From Actinomycetota bacterium (GTDB lineage: Bacteria; Actinomycetota; Actinomycetes; Mycobacteriales; Micromonosporaceae): a DNA stretch of 49,006 nt. The position numbers and the translations under genes are program-made. Positions 5,905-49,006 of the stretch are shown piece by piece (position 1 is the first letter of the stretch; the number at the start of each line of letters is the position of its first letter). The notes beneath the pieces are model-generated. The model made no database searches. It saw nothing but the letters and a program-made list of their open reading frames with translations, and was not told where the DNA came from. The DNA is taken from assembly GCA_046727455.1 (NCBI GenBank), contig JBKPCQ010000219.1, positions 1 through 49,006 of the forward strand, in the 5' to 3' direction.

Positions 5905-7500
5905 ATGACGCAGTCAATGTTGATCGAGGCGGCGCCGGCTCGGCCGGGCAGGGTCGAAGGCCGCCGCCGGGCGGGGCACGGTCATCCCTGGCTCACCCTC
6001 CTAGCCGTCGCGCTCGGCGTGATGATGGTCGGGCTCGACGCCACGGTCGTCGCCATCGCCAACCCGGCCATCGCCCGGGACCTGCACGCCGACCTGGCCG
6101 GCCTGCAATGGGTCACCAACGGGTACCTGCTGGCGATCGCGGTCTCGCTGATCACCGCAGGCAGGCTGGCCGACCGGATCGGCCGCAAGCGCGTCTTCCT
6201 GATCGGCGTCGCCGGATTCGCGGTCGCCTCGGTCGCGGTCGGCCTCTCCACCACCATCGGCCTGGTCATCCTGTTCCGGGTCCTGCAGGGCCTGTTCGGC
6301 GCGCTGCTGCAACCCGCCAGCCTGGCGATCATCCGCAACACCTTCCCGCCCGAGCGGCTCAACATGGCGATCGGCATCTGGAGCGGTACCTCCGGCCTGG
6401 CCATCGCGAGCGGCCCGATCGTGGCCGGGCTGCTCGTCCAGCACGTGAGCTGGCAGTCGGTCTTCTACCTGAACGCGCCGATCGCGGTACTCGGGCTGGC
6501 GCTGGGGGGCTGGGTGATCCGGGAGTCGCGGGATCCCGAGGCCCACGGATCGTTCGACATTCCCGGCGTGCTGCTGCTGTCCGGTACCCTCTTCACGCTG
6601 GTGTGGGGCCTGATCAAGGCGCAGGCGTACGGCTTCGGCGACCCGTTGCCCCTCGTGTTCTTCGCGGTCGCGGTGGTCCTCGGGATCGCCTTCGTGGTGC
6701 GCGAGCAGCGCACCCCCCATCCCGTGCTTCCGCTGGGGGTGTTCCGCTCGGTGTCGGTGTCCGCCGGTACCGTGCTGGTGACCCTCGGGTTCTTCGCCCT
6801 CTTCGGCGCGTTCTTCTTCCTGACCCTGTACCTCCAGCAGGTGCACGGGATGGGGCCGGTCGACGCCGGGGTACGGCTGCTGCCGATGACCGCCACGTTC
6901 ATCGTCGCCTCGCCGCTCGCCGGGTACCTGACCACGCGCCTCGGCCCGCGGCCGCCGCTGGCGCTCGGCATGCTCCTGTCCGCCGTCGCGCTGCTCGCGC
7001 TGTCCCGCCTGTCGGCCGGCGCCGCGTACCACGACCTGTGGCCGTGGTTCGTGGTGATCGGGACCGGCTTCGGGCTGGTCATCGTCGCCGGTACCGAGGC
7101 GATCGTCGGCAACATGCCGAAGCACCTGGCCGGGCTGGCCGGGGGCATCCAGCAGACCGGGGCGCAGATCGGCGGGGTGCTCGGTACCACGATCTTCGGC
7201 ACCGTCCTCGCCACCCGGGTCGGCGACGTGCTCGTCGACCGGCTGACCGGCGCCGGGGTGCCGGGCGTACTCGCCCCCAACCTGCTGCCGGCCAAGCAGT
7301 TCGTCGCCCAGGGCGGGGCACCGGTACCGGCCGGCACGCCGGAGCCGCTGGCCCGGGCGATCACGCTCGGCAGTCACCTCGCGTTCATGGACGGGTTCCG
7401 GATCGCGTTCGTGGTCGGCGCCGCCGTCGCGGTCGCCGCCGCGCTGGCGGCGCTACTGGTCCGCCGGGGTACTGGATCGAGCGCGGCGGTCGCCGCCTGA
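5905..7500 (+). CDS. MFS transporter, DHA2 (EmrB/QacA-like, 14-TMS type) drug:H+ antiporter
   Basis: Track ORF, 531 aa. Motifs include LDATVVAIANPAIARDL and GRLADRIGRKRVF, with many hydrophobic segments. It is divergent from a TetR. Confidence 0.9.
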   Translation: MTQSMLIEAAPARPGRVEGRRRAGHGHPWLTLLAVALGVMMVGLDATVVAIANPAIARDLHADLAGLQWVTNGYLLAIAVSLITAGRLADRIGRKRVFLIGVAGFAVASVAVGLSTTIGLVILFRVLQGLFGALLQPASLAIIRNTFPPERLNMAIGIWSGTSGLAIASGPIVAGLLVQHVSWQSVFYLNAPIAVLGLALGGWVIRESRDPEAHGSFDIPGVLLLSGTLFTLVWGLIKAQAYGFGDPLPLVFFAVAVVLGIAFVVREQRTPHPVLPLGVFRSVSVSAGTVLVTLGFFALFGAFFFLTLYLQQVHGMGPVDAGVRLLPMTATFIVASPLAGYLTTRLGPRPPLALGMLLSAVALLALSRLSAGAAYHDLWPWFVVIGTGFGLVIVAGTEAIVGNMPKHLAGLAGGIQQTGAQIGGVLGTTIFGTVLATRVGDVLVDRLTGAGVPGVLAPNLLPAKQFVAQGGAPVPAGTPEPLARAITLGSHLAFMDGFRIAFVVGAAVAVAAALAALLVRRGTGSSAAVAA

Positions 7501-7510
7501 GCAGTGACTC

Positions 7511-7605
7511 TGGCGCTCGCTCCGCTCGCGCGGCCCCGACGCTCTCCAGGCGCCGTCTTCCCTCGTCGCTACGCTCCTCAGTCCAGACACCGCCCGCGTC
7601 GGGGC
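7511..7605 (+). repeat. Repeat family R1, copy A: ~95-nt element with a 10-bp closing stem, 10 nt after the MFS stop codon
   Basis: Gap-free alignment to 48826-48920 with about 10 mismatches in 95. The stem is GCCCCGACGC (7533-7542) / GCGTCGGGGC (7596-7605). Confidence 0.9.
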
Positions 7606-7621
7606 AGTGACAAGGGCCGGT

Positions 7622-7652
7622 CCGGCCCGCGGTCACCGTGACCGCGGGCCGG
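7622..7652. terminator. 31-nt perfect palindrome (15-bp arms); candidate bidirectional terminator between convergent MFS and asnB
   Basis: ccggcccgcggtcac c gtgaccgcgggccgg, checked base by base. It lies between the stop codons at 7500 (+) and 7704 (-). There is no U-tract. Confidence 0.6.
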
Positions 7653-7703
7653 CGGATGCTCCGGGTCCCCCGGCGAAAGCGCCGGGAGCCGGGATGTCCG
7701 TTG

Positions 7704-9578
7704 TCACACCGTTACGGCGGTGCGGCGCAACCACTCCTCGGTCACCACGAGACTGAAGATGATCTTGTGGTGGTCGCGGCGCCCGGCACGGTGGTCGTCC
7801 ACCATCTGCTGCACCCGCTCCCGGCGCATCAGCCGGTAGATCAGGGCGTCGTCGGCGAGGAGCGTGTCGGACACCTTGCCGGACAACGAGTCCCGGTACC
7901 ACCGGTCGACGACGTCGCGGGCGAACGCGCGCTTGGGACGGCGGACGATCTCGGCGGGCAGGTAGTCCCGGCACAGGCGCTTGTGCAGCCACTTGCGCGC
8001 GCCGTGCCGGACCTTCAACGACGCGGGCAGCCGGCCGACGTACTCGATGATGTCGTGGTCGAGGTAGGGCACCCGCAGTTCGAGCGAGTGGCACATGGAC
8101 AACTTGTCGCCGGCCAGCAGCAGCTCGTCGGGCAGGGAGTGGTTCACCTCAAGGTACTGGAACGCGGCCAGCTCGTCGTCGACGGCCATCCGGGGCACCG
8201 CATCGGCCCAGCAGTCGAGGATCACGTCGCCCGGGTTGTCGGGCAGGACCCCGTCGGCGAACAGGCCGTCCACCGTCGGGCCGGGCAGCAGCGAGAACAC
8301 CTGCTGGTACCGGCGCATGCGGTCGGCCACGTCGAGCGAGTTGAGACCCCGGCGGACGGTGTCGGCGCGAGGCAGCCGGTTCAGCGCGGCGCCGGCCGCG
8401 CCGCGGACCGGTCCGGGCAGCGCCCGCCATGCCTGGCCGTACCGGACCCCGAGATGCCGGGTGTACCCGCCGAACAGCTCGTCCGGCCCCTGCCCGATGA
8501 GCGCGCACTTGACGTCCTCGGCGACCCGGCCGCACAGGTTGTACAGGGCCACGATGGACGGCGTGGCGATCGGCTCCTCGATCGCGTCCACGACGGCGGA
8601 CAGGCCGGCCTCGAACCCGGCGCGGTCCAGCCGGATCTCGGTGTGCCGGGCACCGAACAGGCGCGCCGTGTGCGCGGCGTCGGCCAGCTCGTCGTTGGCG
8701 TACTCGGGGCCGTAGCCGACGGTGAAGGTTCGCCAGGCGCTGCCCTGCTTGTTCATCAGCGCGAGCAGGAGCGCGGAGTCGACCCCGCCGGACAGCAGGA
8801 GGCCGACCGGCACGTCGGACATGAGCTGCTTACGCACCGCCTCGGTGTACCGGGCGAGGACCTCCTCCTGGGCTTGCGCCGGGGTCGGCGCCGGGTCCAG
8901 CGGCGCCGGGTCGTAGTCCCAGTACCGCTCGACCGTCACCTTGCCGCCCTCGGCCACCAGCTTGGTGCCGGCGGCGAGCTTGCGCACGCCGTCGTAGATG
9001 GTCAGCGGCGAGGGCGTGTACCGGTACCGCAGGAACAGGTTGAGCGCCACCGGATCCAGCGCGGGCCGGGCGGCGACGCCGGCGTGGATGGCGCGAAGCT
9101 CGGAGCCGAACACCAGCTCGTCCGCGTCCACCCGGTAGTAGAGGAACTTCACCCCGGCCCGGTCGCGGGCCAGCATCAGCCGTTCCTTCCGGGCGTCCCA
9201 GACGGCGATGGAGTACATGCCGTTCAGCCGGCGCAGCACGTCGTCGCCCCATTGCCGGTACCCGTGGAGGACGACCTCGATGTCCACGTTGGTGGTGAAC
9301 TTGTGCCCGAGCCGCTCCAACTCCTGGCGCAGTTCGGGGAAGTTGTAGATCTCGCCGTTGACGATGACGGTGACCTGACCGTCGTCACTGGACATCGGCT
9401 GGTGACCGCCCGCGAGGTCGACGATCGCCAGGCGGCGGAACCCGAAGCCCACCGGACCGTCGGTGAAGAAGCCCTCGTCGTCCGGTCCCCGATGGGCGAT
9501 GGCGTCCGCCATCTTGCGCAGCCGGTCCACCTCGACCCGCCCGCCACGTAGCCTGAGTACCCCAGTTATCCCGCACAT
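7704..9578 (-). CDS. asnB: Asparagine synthase (glutamine-hydrolysing) family amidotransferase
   Basis: Track ORF, 624 aa. The MCGI N-terminus gives the Ntn Cys nucleophile, and SGGVDSALLLAL is a PP-loop. Confidence 0.9.
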   Translation of the reverse strand: MCGITGVLRLRGGRVEVDRLRKMADAIAHRGPDDEGFFTDGPVGFGFRRLAIVDLAGGHQPMSSDDGQVTVIVNGEIYNFPELRQELERLGHKFTTNVDIEVVLHGYRQWGDDVLRRLNGMYSIAVWDARKERLMLARDRAGVKFLYYRVDADELVFGSELRAIHAGVAARPALDPVALNLFLRYRYTPSPLTIYDGVRKLAAGTKLVAEGGKVTVERYWDYDPAPLDPAPTPAQAQEEVLARYTEAVRKQLMSDVPVGLLLSGGVDSALLLALMNKQGSAWRTFTVGYGPEYANDELADAAHTARLFGARHTEIRLDRAGFEAGLSAVVDAIEEPIATPSIVALYNLCGRVAEDVKCALIGQGPDELFGGYTRHLGVRYGQAWRALPGPVRGAAGAALNRLPRADTVRRGLNSLDVADRMRRYQQVFSLLPGPTVDGLFADGVLPDNPGDVILDCWADAVPRMAVDDELAAFQYLEVNHSLPDELLLAGDKLSMCHSLELRVPYLDHDIIEYVGRLPASLKVRHGARKWLHKRLCRDYLPAEIVRRPKRAFARDVVDRWYRDSLSGKVSDTLLADDALIYRLMRRERVQQMVDDHRAGRRDHHKIIFSLVVTEEWLRRTAVTV

Positions 9579-33423: not shown

Positions 33424-35838
33424 GTGGGGGGAAGGCGGGCTTCCGCGCACCGGCGCGGGCGGGTTCGGCGCGTCAACCGGCCGGGCGGGCGGGCGCACCG
33501 CTTCGTGCGGGCGCTGCTCGGGGCGGTCGGCACCGCGGTGATCGTGGCCGGGCTGGTGCTGTTCGGCGCCCGGGGATACCCGACGACGCGGCCGCACCTG
33601 CTGCCCGGTACCGCCTGGCTGGTCTCGTCGCAGGTCGGGCAGGTGACCCTGCTGGACGGCTCGTCGGCCGAGGTCGCGGCGCAGGTCCCGGTGGCGCCGC
33701 CGGGCACCGGGCTGACCGTGGTGCAACAGGGCTCGACGGCGTACGCGGTGAACGGTACCGCCGGATCGGTCCGCCGGATCGACGGCGCGACGTTCGCGGT
33801 GAGCCCGGCGGTGGTCCCGATCCCCGAGGCCGGCGCCGGGCTGGACGTGTTCGTCGGCCCGGACGTCCTGTACGCGCTGGACACCCGGCGCGGTGTGCTC
33901 ACCGGCGCGGATCCCCGGACGCTCGCCGCGCGTGGCGGCCCGGTCTCCCTCTCGGCGCAGGTTCCCGCGCAGGCGGCGGCGTTCGACGACGCCGGCCGGC
34001 TGTGGCTGCTCGACAACGCGACGGGCGAGCTGATCTGGGTACGGGACGGGCAGCGGCACAGCCGGCGCGGTGCCGTCCGGCCCGGGGCGGGGATGCTCGT
34101 GCTGGCCGGTGGCGCGCCGGTACTCGTCGACCCGGCCGGCCGCACCGCCGCGCTGCTCGATCCGCGGACCGGCGCCGCCCGGGGTACCACCGACCTGGAC
34201 CTGCGGCCCGGCGACCGGATCCAGGTCACCGGCTCGGCCGGCGCGGCCCGGCTGTACGTCGTGGCCGCCCGGGGCGTGCTCGCCATATGCGACCTGACGG
34301 CGGCCACCTGCCCGACGATCGTGCCGCTCGGCGGCGAGGGCGCCGACCTGGGCGCCGCCGTGGAAAGCGCGGGGCGGGTCTTCGTCCCGGACTACGCGAG
34401 CGGCCGGGTGTGGGTCGTCGACGTGGGCGAGCGCCGGGTGGTGGCCCAGCCGAAGGTGCTCGACCGGGGTACCCGTTTCCAGTTGCTCAGCCGGGACGGC
34501 GTGGTGTTCTTCAACGACCCCCTGAGCGAGCACGCGGGCGTGATCCGGCTGGACGGCGGGGTACGGCCGGTGGCCAAGTACGACCCGCGCCACCCCGACG
34601 ACTCGCTCCCGGGGGCCAAGGCCGGCGGCGGACCGCAGCCACCGAACAAGGACCCGAACAAGGACCCGAAGAAGGACCCGAAGAAGCCGGCCGACCAGCC
34701 GAAGCCGCCGCCTCCGGCCGGGCCGCCGCCACCGGCCGACCCGCCGCCGCCACCGGCCGAGGTACGGATCGTCGTGTCGACCGGCCAGCCCCGGGTCAAC
34801 GAGGACATCGGGCTGGGCCTCGCCGTGGACCGGGGACCGGCCCCGGTCAAGGCGCACTGGGACTTCGGCGACGGCGGTACCGGCGACGGCACGACCGTGC
34901 TGCACCGCTGGACGGCCGAGGGCAGCTACCTGGTCAGCGTCCGGGCGGTGTTCCCCGACGGGCACCCCGCGGTCGCCTCGCTGACCCTGGACCTGACCGT
35001 GCGGCCGCCGGTCTTCGGGACGGTCGCCGTCACCACCGGCGGCACCGGTACCGGCGTGGTGGACAGCCAGCCGGCGGGCCTCGCCTGCCCCCCGTCGTGC
35101 CGGGCCGACTACGCCGTCGGCGACCCGGTGGTGCTGAGCGCGGCGGCCGGCGGTACCTCCGACTTCACCGGCTGGGGCGGCGCCTGCGCGACCGCCGGCA
35201 CCGCCCCGACCTGCACGCTCACCGTCGGCGCCGGTACCGCCCAGGTCTCCGCCACGTTCGCCGCCAAACCGAAGCTCCGGATCCAGGTCACCAGCGGCGG
35301 CACCGTCGTCGGCACCGGCATCTCGTGCCGCTCCACCTGCGTGACCGGGATGACCACCGGCCAGCAGCTCACGCTGACCGCCCAGCCCGACCCCAACTTC
35401 ACCTTCACCGGCTGGGGCGGCGACTGCGCCGGCAGCGGATCGTGCCTGCTCACGATGGACGGCGACAAGGTGGTGACGGCCGCCTTCAAGTCCCTGGGCC
35501 CGCTGCCGGCGCCGACCGGGCTCAACCCACCCGACCGTGCTCTCATCACGCACACGACGCGGCTGGAGATGGTCACCGTGCCGGTGAGCTGGACGCCGGT
35601 ACCGGGTGCGGACCACTACCTGCTGGAGAGTGAGGAGGTGCCGTTCAGCCCGCCCGGGCCGCCGTTCGAGCACGTGATCACCCCGACCACGGCGCCCAAG
35701 GGCACGGTGCGGCTCGACTGCACCTTCCCGACCGAGGGCCCGCTCTTCCAGTGGCGGGTGACCGCGATCGCGGCGGACGGCACGCGCGGGGCGGACAGCC
35801 CGTGGAGCCGCCTGTTCTGCGGCCCGCCGTCCATGTAA
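33424..35838 (+). CDS. Membrane-anchored multidomain surface protein: propeller-like region, Pro/Lys-rich linker, PKD domain, two GWGG-type repeat domains and an FN3-like C-terminus
   Basis: This is the 3' part of track ORF 32803..35838. GTG 33424 lies 8 nt after GGAGG. The N-terminus is basic and followed by the TM segment LLGAVGTAVIVAGLVLF. It has a PKD signature HWDFGDGGTGDGTTVLHRWTAEGSY and two copies of FTGWGG(A/D)C...C(T/L)LT. Confidence 0.75.
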   Translation: MGGRRASAHRRGRVRRVNRPGGRAHRFVRALLGAVGTAVIVAGLVLFGARGYPTTRPHLLPGTAWLVSSQVGQVTLLDGSSAEVAAQVPVAPPGTGLTVVQQGSTAYAVNGTAGSVRRIDGATFAVSPAVVPIPEAGAGLDVFVGPDVLYALDTRRGVLTGADPRTLAARGGPVSLSAQVPAQAAAFDDAGRLWLLDNATGELIWVRDGQRHSRRGAVRPGAGMLVLAGGAPVLVDPAGRTAALLDPRTGAARGTTDLDLRPGDRIQVTGSAGAARLYVVAARGVLAICDLTAATCPTIVPLGGEGADLGAAVESAGRVFVPDYASGRVWVVDVGERRVVAQPKVLDRGTRFQLLSRDGVVFFNDPLSEHAGVIRLDGGVRPVAKYDPRHPDDSLPGAKAGGGPQPPNKDPNKDPKKDPKKPADQPKPPPPAGPPPPADPPPPPAEVRIVVSTGQPRVNEDIGLGLAVDRGPAPVKAHWDFGDGGTGDGTTVLHRWTAEGSYLVSVRAVFPDGHPAVASLTLDLTVRPPVFGTVAVTTGGTGTGVVDSQPAGLACPPSCRADYAVGDPVVLSAAAGGTSDFTGWGGACATAGTAPTCTLTVGAGTAQVSATFAAKPKLRIQVTSGGTVVGTGISCRSTCVTGMTTGQQLTLTAQPDPNFTFTGWGGDCAGSGSCLLTMDGDKVVTAAFKSLGPLPAPTGLNPPDRALITHTTRLEMVTVPVSWTPVPGADHYLLESEEVPFSPPGPPFEHVITPTTAPKGTVRLDCTFPTEGPLFQWRVTAIAADGTRGADSPWSRLFCGPPSM
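34645..34692 (+). repeat. In-frame 12-nt tandem repeat (aacaaggacccg x2, aagaaggacccg, aagaagccggcc) encoding NKDP-NKDP-KKDP-KKPA
   Basis: Read directly in the linker of the surface protein, followed by a poly-Pro stretch. Confidence 0.85.
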
Positions 35839-48155: not shown

Positions 48156-48200
48156 TAGGCGTACGATGTACTCCTACCAACTGTAGGCGTATGGCGTACG
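48156..48200. promoter_or_regulatory. Repeated TAGGCGTA / GGCGTACG motifs in the peroxiredoxin / TetR divergent region (candidate operators)
   Basis: TAGGCGTA occurs at 48156-48163 and 48184-48191. GGCGTACG occurs at 48158-48165 and 48193-48200. Confidence 0.3.
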
Positions 48201-48820
48201 CTGTCAAGGCCATGCCCCGCCCGCGTTCGCTGACCCACGACCACATCGCGGCGGCGGCCCTCGCCGTCATCGACCGTTCGGGGCTCGCCGCGCTGTCGAT
48301 GCGCACCGTCGCGGCCGAGCTGGGCATGGGAACGATGTCGCTGTACCGCTACGTCAAGGGCCGGGAGCAGCTCGAACGGCTGGTCGTCGAACTCGTGCTG
48401 CGCGACATCGATCTGCGGGTCGACGCCGGTACGCCGTGGACCGACCGGGTCGCCGTGATCGCCGGACGCATCCGCCACGCGGTGAGCGCCCACCCGGCGG
48501 TCGTCCCGTTGTTCGTCATCCACCGGAGCACCAGCGTCGGCGTCATGCGCTGCGGCGAGGCGTTGCTGGGCATCCTGGCCGGTGCCGGGTTCACCGGGGC
48601 GGAGCGGGTCGTGGCGTTCCGGACCGTCTTCAGCTACCTGGTCGGGGCGTTCACCACCGAGCACCTCGGCTCGTTGTCGGGGCCGGGTACGGCGGCGCTG
48701 GCCCGGCTGCCGCGCACCGCCTATCCGTTCCTGGCCGAGACCGCGGGCGTGGCCCGCCACGTCAGCCCCGACGACGAGTTCGCCGGAGGGCTCGCGATCA
48801 TCCTGCGCGGCCTGCGCTGA
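48191..48820 (+). CDS. TetR/AcrR family transcriptional regulator
   Basis: Track ORF, 209 aa, with an alternative ATG at 48212 (MPRPRSL). The HTH is SMRTVAAELGMGTMSLYRYVKGREQ. Confidence 0.85.
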   Translation: MAYAVKAMPRPRSLTHDHIAAAALAVIDRSGLAALSMRTVAAELGMGTMSLYRYVKGREQLERLVVELVLRDIDLRVDAGTPWTDRVAVIAGRIRHAVSAHPAVVPLFVIHRSTSVGVMRCGEALLGILAGAGFTGAERVVAFRTVFSYLVGAFTTEHLGSLSGPGTAALARLPRTAYPFLAETAGVARHVSPDDEFAGGLAIILRGLR

Positions 48821-48825
48821 GATGT

Positions 48826-49006
48826 TGGCGCTCGCTCCGCTCGCGCGGCACCGAGGCTCCTCAGGCGACGTCTTCCCTCGTCGCTGCGCTCCTCAGTCCA
48901 GACGGCGCCCGCCTCGGTGCGACGTGTTGGCGCTCGCTTCGCTCGCGCGGCACCGAGGCTCCTCAGGCGCCGTCTTCCCTCGTCGCTGCGCTCCTCAGTC
49001 CAGACG
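48826..49006 (+). repeat. Repeat family R1, copies B and C in tandem (102-nt period); copy C is cut by the window end
   Basis: Copy B is 48826-48927 and copy C is 48928-49006, with 2 mismatches in 79 nt. Copy B has the stem GCACCGAGGC (48848-48857) / GCCTCGGTGC (48911-48920). The array starts 5 nt after the TetR stop. Confidence 0.9.

Follow-up and report, generated by a model that had tools for sequence, protein, structure and literature searches.

A MIRU-like structured repeat behind stop codons of a Micromonosporaceae contig folds on the strand opposite to that first proposed and carries a hairpin tip found across bacterial phyla

A GC-rich element that stands immediately behind the stop codons of two different genes raises the questions of what kind of sequence it is, on which strand it is read and how it came to be there. 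Such an element lies in a 49,006-nt stretch of DNA (the window, meaning the whole stretch analysed; GenBank assembly GCA_046727455.1, contig JBKPCQ010000219.1, positions 1 to 49,006) from an actinomycetote of the family Micromonosporaceae. The initial annotation described two copies of about 95 nt and implied a plus-strand polarity, as part of the 3′ untranslated region (3′UTR) of the upstream gene. The present analysis upheld the structure and reversed the polarity: the element is a structured repeat resembling the interspersed repetitive units of mycobacteria (MIRUs) and the repetitive extragenic palindromes (REPs), and its conserved fold belongs to the minus strand of the window. The preferred explanation, to which a probability of roughly 0.6 is given, is a dispersed, tandem-prone, non-coding repeat of mobile or selfish nature, probably recognised as single-stranded DNA (ssDNA) and not as a 3′UTR RNA.

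Three copies of the repeat unit were found in the window, all intergenic, all in one orientation and all with the folded strand on minus: copy A at 7511–7605 (model R1, 111.9 bits, E-value 2e-20), copy B at 48826–48920 (110.5–115.5 bits with the same model) and copy C at 48928–49006, which follows B in tandem and ends at the window edge; a full-sensitivity model scan of the window gave no others. Copies B and C form an array of period 102 with 1.8 copies at 97% identity (Tandem Repeats Finder), and 2 of the 79 positions that they can be compared at are different. The recurrence is not due to chance, since two sub-patterns taken from the unit matched three times each in the window, with 0.04 and 0.00 matches expected. 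The gapless alignment of 7511–7605 with 48826–48920, estimated by hand at about 10 mismatches, contains exactly 10 in 95 positions when counted in register. The 10-nt outer arms read GCCCCGACGC/GCGTCGGGGC in copy A and GCACCGAGGC/GCCTCGGTGC in copy B, and the four differences between them compensate one another in two pairs (unit positions 25/93 and 30/88), as had been proposed.

Copy C, an 8-bp inner helix, a small hairpin at 7513–7531 and the better-defined structure of the minus strand were absent from that first description. In register, the shared unit opens with a small 5′ hairpin; a 10-bp outer helix follows, then, after a short linker, an 8-bp inner helix, and 28 nucleotides are invariant. 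In copy A, the outer arm 7533–7542 pairs with 7596–7605 over 10 bp and the inner arm 7550–7557 with 7586–7593 over 8 bp, including one C·C and one C·A, the latter being a G·U wobble on the minus strand; the invariant 20-nt tip at 7562–7581 reads CTGAGGAGCGTAGCGACGAG on that strand. The corresponding parts of copy B are module 1 (48828–48846), the outer arms (48848–48857/48911–48920), the inner arms (48865–48872/48901–48908) and the tip (48877–48896), and the tip of copy C lies at 48979–48998. Module 1, the small hairpin (7513–7531 in copy A), reads GCGC-GA-GC-GGA-GC-GA-GCGC on the minus strand, where it forms four Watson-Crick pairs, a tandem G·A, two G-C pairs and a GNA triloop, with the motif GAGCGGAGCGA at 7517–7527(–). 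Its helix covaries, and its G·A positions are occupied by Watson-Crick pairs in relatives from Micromonosporaceae and Kribbella. The folded unit is a long hairpin whose two helices are free to covary; its cap is the invariant purine-rich tip CTGAGGAGCGNAGCGACGAG, and a second, small GNA-capped hairpin comes after it.

The claim that selection acts on pairing and not on sequence was borne out in a wider sample. A covariance model built from 20 copies retrieved 33, and covariation was counted on the alignment fitted to that model. Across these 33 copies, 87.6% of the pair cells formed standard pairs, compared with 65.4% after shuffling and 30–49% when the partner was slid, and changes on both sides were observed in 24 of the 26 pairs, including all ten pairs of the outer helix. 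The same pairing pattern was evident in unaligned in-register sequences of the relatives.

The strand on which this pairing is maintained is revealed by the exceptions to it. Among the non-Watson-Crick cells of the two long helices in the fitted alignment, 35 were A·C or C·A and 2 were G·T or T·G, and every A·C or C·A of the plus strand corresponds to a wobble pair (G·U or G·T) of the minus strand. Counted by helix, the wobble mismatches favoured the minus strand 12:0 in the outer helix and 24:1 in the inner helix, the latter in an alignment-free count (binomial p about 1.5e-6); the sub-family of the window taken separately gave 12:1 by the same approach. The alignment-free count used fixed offsets from the invariant core, local alignment across phyla being too noisy and counting loops as mismatches. 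Most of the remaining mismatches were C·T or T·C, which correspond to G·A on the minus strand. Moreover, RNAfold gave the minus strand of copy A a minimum free energy (MFE) of –53.2 kcal/mol and an ensemble frequency of 0.65 (z –1.5/–2.4 for the whole unit), and the 44 nt of tip plus inner helix reached 0.88 with z –3.9. One dominant structure was thus obtained on the minus strand (0.65–0.88), compared with a plus-strand maximum of 0.09 (whole unit, z –0.9/+0.25). The invariant tip is structured on the minus strand only, the 28 invariant nucleotides being an unpaired pyrimidine loop on the plus strand. The assignment of the conserved fold to the minus strand follows from three mutually independent observations: the wobble asymmetry, the G·A nature of the other mismatches and a core that is structured only there.

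These observations bear directly on the reading implied at first, in which the element would be a plus-strand RNA in the 3′UTR of the upstream gene, acting as a terminator, as a stabiliser of the mRNA 3′ end or as the source of a 3′UTR-derived small RNA. Copies A and B do start 5–10 nt past plus-strand stop codons, the Watson-Crick helices form on the plus strand too, and 10 of the 15 callable 5′ flanks in the sub-family are co-directional with that strand. Nevertheless, the wobbles lie on the other strand, the invariant 28 nt would be left unpaired in a poorly defined fold, the family shows mixed orientation and includes intragenic copies. Furthermore, no run of T follows the element on either strand, as an intrinsic (Rho-independent) terminator would require, and copy A has convergent genes on its two sides and a perfect palindrome, distinct from the element, beside it. 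A plus-strand 3′UTR RNA is consequently regarded as decidedly improbable, and the polarity that went with it was not sustained.

The surroundings of the copies are as follows. Copy A begins 10 nt after the stop codon of an MFS (EmrB/QacA-type) transporter gene (5905–7500, plus strand), on the other side of which an asparagine synthase gene (7704–9578, minus strand) converges on it. Between copy A and the stop codon of the latter lies a 31-nt palindrome at 7622–7652, with a 14-bp stem and a 3-nt CGT loop; it had been noted from the beginning, has no T-tract, occurs once in the window and is probably a bidirectional terminator-type hairpin outside the repeat. A scan of 7300–7900 found no terminator-like or promoter-like site. 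Copy B begins 5 nt after the stop codon of a TetR-family regulator gene (48191–48820, plus strand). Among the loci examined, the flanking genes were of the MFS, AsnB-type, TetR and AhpC-like kinds. The window has a GC content of 73%, and its GC skew of 0.013 is too weak for inferring the direction of replication. Elsewhere in the window, at 34642–34760, two adjacent arrays of a 12-nt unit CCGAACAAGGAC (3.8 copies, 96% identity) and of a 21-nt GC-rich unit (3.5 copies) were observed, which have no relation to the repeat element.

That the copies share one orientation after a stop codon was true of A and B in the window, and was lost when the family was considered. The flanking coding strand was called from open frames by a GC3 minus GC2 score, and the sub-family of the window gave 5 plus-codirectional, 4 minus-codirectional, 3 convergent and 1 divergent contexts. 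In the closest relative of copy A (L091), for example, convergent genes enclose a tandem pair, and a stop codon stands 3 nt away from the 5′ end of the folded strand. The orientation behind stop codons is therefore a small-sample impression and no rule of the family, and the mixed tally is the pattern that the initial annotation had named as contrary to its own reading. The rule that does hold is that copies avoid divergent (promoter) regions, in the manner of REP-type elements.

In the invariant tip CTGAGGAGCGNAGCGACGAG, a GCGNAGC mini-hairpin is lengthened by Watson-Crick pairs that alternate with tandem G·A pairs. Numbered on the minus strand as C1 U2 G3 A4 G5 G6 A7 G8 C9 G10 N11 A12 G13 C14 G15 A16 C17 G18 A19 G20, it is symmetric around N11: G10·A12 closes the GNA triloop, followed outwards by the pairs C9-G13 and G8-C14, the tandem G·A of A7·G15 and G6·A16, the pair G5-C17, a second tandem G·A of A4·G18 and G3·A19, and finally U2·G20. 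This symmetric fold is also the RNAfold MFE structure. All six GAGCGNAGCGA motifs in the window lie on the minus strand, with 0.37 matches expected, and their N is G, T, G, C, A and C, so that all four bases are represented. Hammerhead, K-turn, box C/D, SRP and sarcin-ricin folds were set aside for the tip, by eye, since the internal Watson-Crick hairpin that they require is absent and Rfam lends them no support; the idea of complementarity to rRNA was dropped as well.

Mini-hairpins of this kind, characterised by Hirao and colleagues, are stable for any N, with melting temperatures (Tm) of 70–76 °C as DNA; they resist nucleases, are bound poorly by SSB and occur at the primase-dependent origins of G4 and ssiA (PMC13037366). 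The sole RNA value in the same review, that of the 8-nt tetraloop r(GCGAAAGC), is a Tm of 39 °C, against 76.5 °C for its DNA form (PMC13037366). It would be predicted that the purine-strand DNA d(GCGCCGTCTGGACTGAGGAGCGCAGCGACGAGGGAAGACGGCGC) forms a markedly stabler monomeric hairpin than its RNA version or the complementary strand.

The main rival to recognition as ssDNA is a functional RNA of the same minus strand, transcribed from convergent genes or, as in MIRUs, within operon mRNAs and serving either as a protein-binding or ribosome-related module or as a block to 3′ exonucleases, with GAGGAG stretches that resemble Shine-Dalgarno sequences. It agrees with the strand of constraint, RNA parameters yield a dominant fold for it, and it is favoured by the sense orientation of the folded strand in other groups: in MIRUs, which served as control, this strand was sense 69:3 upstream and 79:4 downstream, in a second sub-family, X, 7:0, and in a Chloroflexota/Acidobacteriota group 9:1. 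MIRUs are, moreover, transcribed in 5′UTRs and polycistronic mRNAs (PMC4128351, PMC3184786), and the minus strand of copy A lies downstream of the asparagine synthase gene. On the other hand, 5 of the 13 fully called contexts in the sub-family of the window have both neighbouring genes antisense to the folded strand, the 14-bp palindrome stands between the asparagine synthase gene and copy A, no promoter-like site was found there, GNA and GNNA mini-hairpins are reported to be much weaker as RNA (PMC13037366), and Rfam has no match. A functional minus-strand RNA is thus considered unlikely, although it deserves more weight than any other competing explanation of the element.

An exact scan for the 20-mer of the tip in a collection of species-representative genomes returned more than 109 loci, and among the matches listed about 25 were actinomycete loci with the architecture of the window, from Micromonospora, Kribbella, Spirillospora, one Micromonosporaceae metagenome-assembled genome (MAG) and two Actinomycetota MAGs. 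The 33 model hits that constitute the family come from at least 8 genomes of high-GC actinomycetes; the unit measures about 98–102 nt, and tandem periods in relatives are 101–105. The first description of the element as REP- or MITE-like (MITE, miniature inverted-repeat transposable element) and non-coding in the window was upheld, as was the lack of an Rfam match.

Evidence for insertion comes from two members of the family that lie inside genes. In a Micromonosporaceae MAG, a unit (L045:2766-2862) lies in frame within an L-serine dehydratase gene, at the junction of the beta and alpha domains; it is sense on the minus-equivalent (folded) strand, in the EERSDEG frame, and Pfam recovers both SDH domains. 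Comparison with PDB 4rqo aligned 35 residues against one, a net insertion of 34 amino acids or 102 nt, and the 4-nt direct repeat GCCT stands on both sides of the unit, its two copies spaced exactly 102 apart. Similarly, in the complete chromosome of Spirillospora sp. CA-294931 a unit (L092:2490-2586) stands in frame inside a DUF35/ChsH2 zinc ribbon, where it splits the two CxxC halves and leaves the downstream OB-fold domain intact. In MFS orthologs at 82–87% identity, the element is absent and ordinary hairpins occupy its place, next to different downstream genes.

The 8-mer GCAGTGAC, which brackets copy A at 7501–7508 and 7604–7611 as first noted, was suggested to be a target-site duplication. 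An 8-bp duplication is not general in the family: flanking direct repeats of solo copies were 4–7 nt long, the same as in random controls, and linkers of the form GCxGTGxx resembling GCAGTGAC precede and follow units in relatives. The 8-mer of copy A does lie in roughly the 3% tail of the random controls; to judge from its linker-like letters it is probably a remnant of the linker of the unit itself (about 1.08 units) and not a duplication.

Two contigs from independent assemblies, of 1795 bp (L110, JGI) and 4401 bp (L234, GCA_046730415.1), encode proteins identical or 99% identical to the TetR and MFS proteins of the window and both end inside the repeat, which implies that it breaks short-read assemblies. 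A blastn search of a plasmid collection found no match to the element, and in viral contigs the tip had 3 matches and the MIRU core 0; the element is therefore essentially chromosomal.

Taken as a mobile or selfish repeat, the element would be, or would have been, non-autonomous, its hairpin serving as substrate of a trans-acting enzyme that most likely recognised it on ssDNA, and arrays would then expand through duplication of the unit. Recognition as ssDNA is favoured because the strand-specific constraint persists whichever way the neighbours are transcribed, and because GCGNAGC hairpins are far stabler as DNA than as RNA. Effects on the MFS or TetR genes, such as those of a stable hairpin past the stop codon, would be incidental, and a regulation of either gene by the element is without supporting evidence.

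Several points weigh against this explanation. No strict pair of empty and filled sites with conserved flanks was found for the window copies, since the gene order that follows the MFS gene is not conserved and a clean pre-insertion site is thus lacking, and no transposase or other partner protein was identified. The wobble asymmetry may come in part from a strand-biased C-to-T mutation and from the repeated sampling of related copies. The choice of DNA over RNA is inferred: in MIRUs, the X sub-family and the Chloroflexota/Acidobacteriota group the folded strand is strongly sense and is thus transcribed, and the RNA energy parameters likewise favour the fold. The method that called gene orientation is a crude one (GC3 and open frames), validated on the MIRU control alone. 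Finally, the family covariance model reaches MIRU loci weakly (E-values 0.08–0.7), and common descent with MIRUs is for this reason not proven against convergence on a very stable motif.

An ssDNA signal could also benefit the host and be maintained by it at many sites, as an entry site for primase or the primosome or as a structure that excludes SSB from one template strand. The occurrence of GCGNAGC-type hairpins at the G4 and ssiA origins and their poor binding by SSB (PMC13037366) agree with such a role, as do the invariance of the tip across phyla and the shared orientation of the three window copies. Yet copy number and positions vary by genome, copies are found within genes and in the leader of an IS3-type transposase, tandem arrays occur, orthologous MFS loci are devoid of the element, and the GC skew of the window is too weak to tie orientation to replication; a host-beneficial signal therefore seems improbable, and the mobile or selfish repeat is retained.

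The relation to MIRUs was approached through the M. intracellulare repeat primer CGACGATGCAGAGCGAAGCGATG (PMC10117815), whose core was used as MIRU query. A metagenome scan with this core returned at least 120 loci, and among the 80 listed, from which spacings were read, tandem spacings were 51, 53 and 77 nt, the classical MIRU unit sizes. The contigs were mycobacterial, by their Ms1 and ASpks matches, and the units read ATGAcccGCGCCGGCGACGATGCA-GAGCGNAGCGA-TGAGGAGGAGCGGCGCnnATGA. Compared by eye with these real MIRU units, the window unit is about 68% identical over 44 nt. The covariance model of its family reaches MIRU loci at E-values of 0.08–0.7, and the relation would therefore be a distant one.

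The X sub-family (L003, L027, L055, L074, L051 and L097, all actinobacterial MAGs) shares the tip and has neither the outer helix nor the small hairpin. Its units carry open reading frames (ORFs) of 31–34 amino acids, M/V-S-x-A-x-R-R-G-A-W-T-E-E-R-S-D-E-G-R-R-R..., with ATGA or GTGA at both ends. According to Supply 1997, as cited in PMC12548453 and PMC3184786, MIRUs contain a small ORF, oriented like the flanking genes, whose start and stop overlap theirs (ATGA, –4), with translational coupling. The X sub-family thus shows coupling in the MIRU style outside Mycobacterium, from which it follows that MIRU-type elements are not confined to mycobacteria.

These ORFs lend some substance to the idea that the unit is a small protein-coding or translationally coupled module, read in the minus-strand frame ...VWTEERSDEGRRR..., in which 102 nt equal 34 codons. 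The frame is that of the MIRU ORF (..AERSDE..), the variable N of the tip is the third base of an Arg codon, the unit length is a multiple of 3, and the intragenic copies are in frame. However, the window copies lack a start codon in this frame and run antisense to the MFS and TetR genes beside them, and the translation of all 117 occurrences of the ERSDE frame revealed a consistent start or stop nowhere but in the X sub-family. Besides, the 20-mer is identical in nucleotides in genomes of 40% to 73% GC, which is unexpected under selection at the codon level, and the helices covary at the nucleotide level. A coding module is for these reasons the least probable of the explanations weighed, and the repeat of the window is still best described as non-coding.

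The exact 20-mer CTGAGGAGCG(C/T)AGCGACGAG (window 7562–7581, 48877–48896 and 48979–48998; loci L001-L109) was present in at least 11 phyla, among them, besides the actinomycetes, Pseudomonadota, Bacteroidota, Chloroflexota, Acidobacteriota, Gemmatimonadota, Myxococcota, Planctomycetota, Bacillota, Desulfobacterota and Patescibacteria, in genomes of 40% to 73% GC that in many cases hold several copies. It is flanked by complementary arms that are unrelated between lineages, and the mean pairing energy across the core was –34.9 kcal/mol, against –24.6 kcal/mol with shuffled flanks. In a further 35 GAGCGNAGCGA sites within these loci, the first four layers were closed by Watson-Crick or G·A pairs. 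One and the same 20-nt tip therefore caps hairpin repeats of different bacterial phyla that are otherwise unrelated. These data do not distinguish shared descent from horizontal spread or from convergence on a motif of exceptional stability. Tentatively, and with more doubt than hope, the tip CTGAGGAGCGNAGCGACGAG, or its shorter form GAGCGNAGCGA, may be viewed as a pan-bacterial module that one conserved machinery would read as ssDNA; if this were true, it would define an unrecognised superfamily of hairpin-mobilised elements and give a first mechanistic handle on the movement of MIRUs.

Some of the tip-bearing loci merit a separate mention. At L076:7151-7170 an IS3-type OrfA (HTH_Tnp_1 by Pfam) has an N-terminal extension that contains the tip in frame, with arms of 11–12 bp. 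The same OrfA-leader setting is inferred for L083 and L021 from similar translations, the Pfam scan having covered the L076 ORF only, and the three loci come from different lineages (Thermoanaerobaculia, Ca. Rariloculus and Azotimanducaceae). In a Rhodocyclaceae MAG (L033:5588-6428 and L005), two tip-bearing composites of about 280 bp are inverted around a central stretch, with 98% complementarity and a distance of 388 nt between their tip-bearing arms and 581 nt between the outermost ones; the composites also hold a GTAACTTCTTTGT...ACAAAGAAGTCAC palindrome and have the appearance of a larger MITE-like unit. In L025, L036, L081 and L089 (Chloroflexota, Acidobacteriota and Gemmatimonadota), a short form, gtcatYCTGAGCGAAGCGAAGRatc, and the long form occur as inverted partners; the two forms differ by two 3-nt steps, each step being one G-C plus G·A layer. 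Recurrent "hypothetical peptides" of the SLRS, LRMT and HPERSEGS types are explained as translations of repeats of this kind.

MIRUs have been used in the typing of tuberculosis for about 25 years, and no description of their origin, structure or means of spread was found in the searchable literature. Against this background, the present analysis shows that elements of the MIRU type, longer than those of mycobacteria, occur well beyond Mycobacterium, and that their common denominator is a specific one-strand fold in which a GCGNAGC mini-hairpin is combined with tandem G·A pairs. The tip that recurs across phyla, with its G·A mini-hairpin, most deserves further study. Questions that become testable are which strand and which nucleic acid is recognised, which protein binds the tip, and how orientation relates to replication. 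The repeat also matters for annotation, as its units break assemblies, create spurious ORFs (EERSDEG/SLRS-type peptides) and can sit in frame within real genes.

Comparison with catalogued families began with Rfam. The window gave 0 matches at the gathering score, the best E-values for 7400–7750 (2.1 to 9.7) fell in the flanks and off the element core, and 33 related loci gave nothing relevant; no Rfam family covers the related loci or the MIRUs. A match to Acido-Lenti-1 in L017 was discarded because it lies elsewhere in that locus, off the element. The family and the cross-phylum tip were likewise found without description in Rfam or the searchable literature, an absence that is no proof of novelty. 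The attC sites of integrons (RYYYAAC ... GTTRRRY cores) were considered because many hosts of the 20-mer belong to integron-rich taxa, and were rejected: copy A has no GTT/AAC cores, and the GTTGGCG found at copy B does not fit GTTRRRY.

With MITEs, the repeat has in common that it is non-autonomous, multi-copy, hairpin-forming and intergenic, but it has no terminal inverted repeats matching a known insertion sequence end, its tandem arrays are atypical for MITEs, and it shows no consistent target-site duplication beyond about 4 nt, the serine dehydratase copy (L045) fitting 4 nt only. The palindromic elements of Rickettsia, which Ogata et al. are said to have described in 2000, are reportedly AT-rich sequences of about 100–150 nt that are restricted to Rickettsia and inserted in frame in protein-coding genes. 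The copies in the serine dehydratase (L045) and DUF35 (L092) genes resemble them in being in frame and intragenic without destruction of the gene; there is, however, no sequence similarity, and the window's own copies are intergenic.

The resemblance to REPs, bacterial interspersed mosaic elements (BIMEs) and REPINs, which RAYT transposases of the Y1 HUH type mobilise, lies in short, GC-rich, extragenic, multi-copy hairpins at gene ends, with an imperfect hairpin read on one DNA strand and stems that are specific to the lineage (PMC3184786). In contrast to REPs and REPINs, in which a conserved 5′ GTAG/GTGG head adjoins an imperfect palindrome of 20–40 nt, no such head is conserved at either end in alignments of 20–33 copies, and the repeat is larger and two-tiered, with an invariant loop in place of an invariant stem; REP sequences are, in addition, species-specific, whereas the present tip crosses phyla. 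No RAYT gene was seen in the window or the examined loci, in which no systematic search for one was made. As for the d(GCGNAGC) mini-hairpin itself, both GNA-capped hairpins of the unit contain GCGNAGC, with only N varying freely, in keeping with the reported stability for any N. The natural sites reported for it are single ones at phage or plasmid origins and promoters, whereas those observed here are dispersed genomic repeats, and the motif as described includes neither the extension by tandem G·A pairs nor an invariant tip of 20 nt.

The closest likeness is to MIRUs. Both share the apex GAGCGNAGCGA(Y)GAGG, the alternation of Watson-Crick with tandem G·A pairs, the same purine-rich folded strand, a GC closing helix (GCGCCG/CGGCGC in MIRUs, GCGCCGTC/GACGGCGC in the inner helix of the window element) and the same frame (..AERSDE.. 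and ..TEERSDEG.., respectively), and both are intergenic, direct, tandem-prone units of Actinomycetota with short (4-nt) flanking repeats. The unit of the window, at 102 nt, is marginally above the classical MIRU range of 40–100 bp and clearly longer than the MIRU units of 51, 53 and 77 nt; an outer helix of 10 bp and a second hairpin come in addition, and its tip has one more G-C plus G·A step. Its window copies have neither ATGA/GTGA start-stop overlaps nor an ORF, the orientation of its family is mixed where that of MIRUs is strictly sense (69:3), and its host is not a Mycobacterium, the best-named MFS homologs (73–76% identity) belonging to Rugosimonospora and Phytohabitans of the Micromonosporaceae. 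Judged on these shared and added parts, the element of the window appears to be a longer, ORF-less variant of the MIRU.

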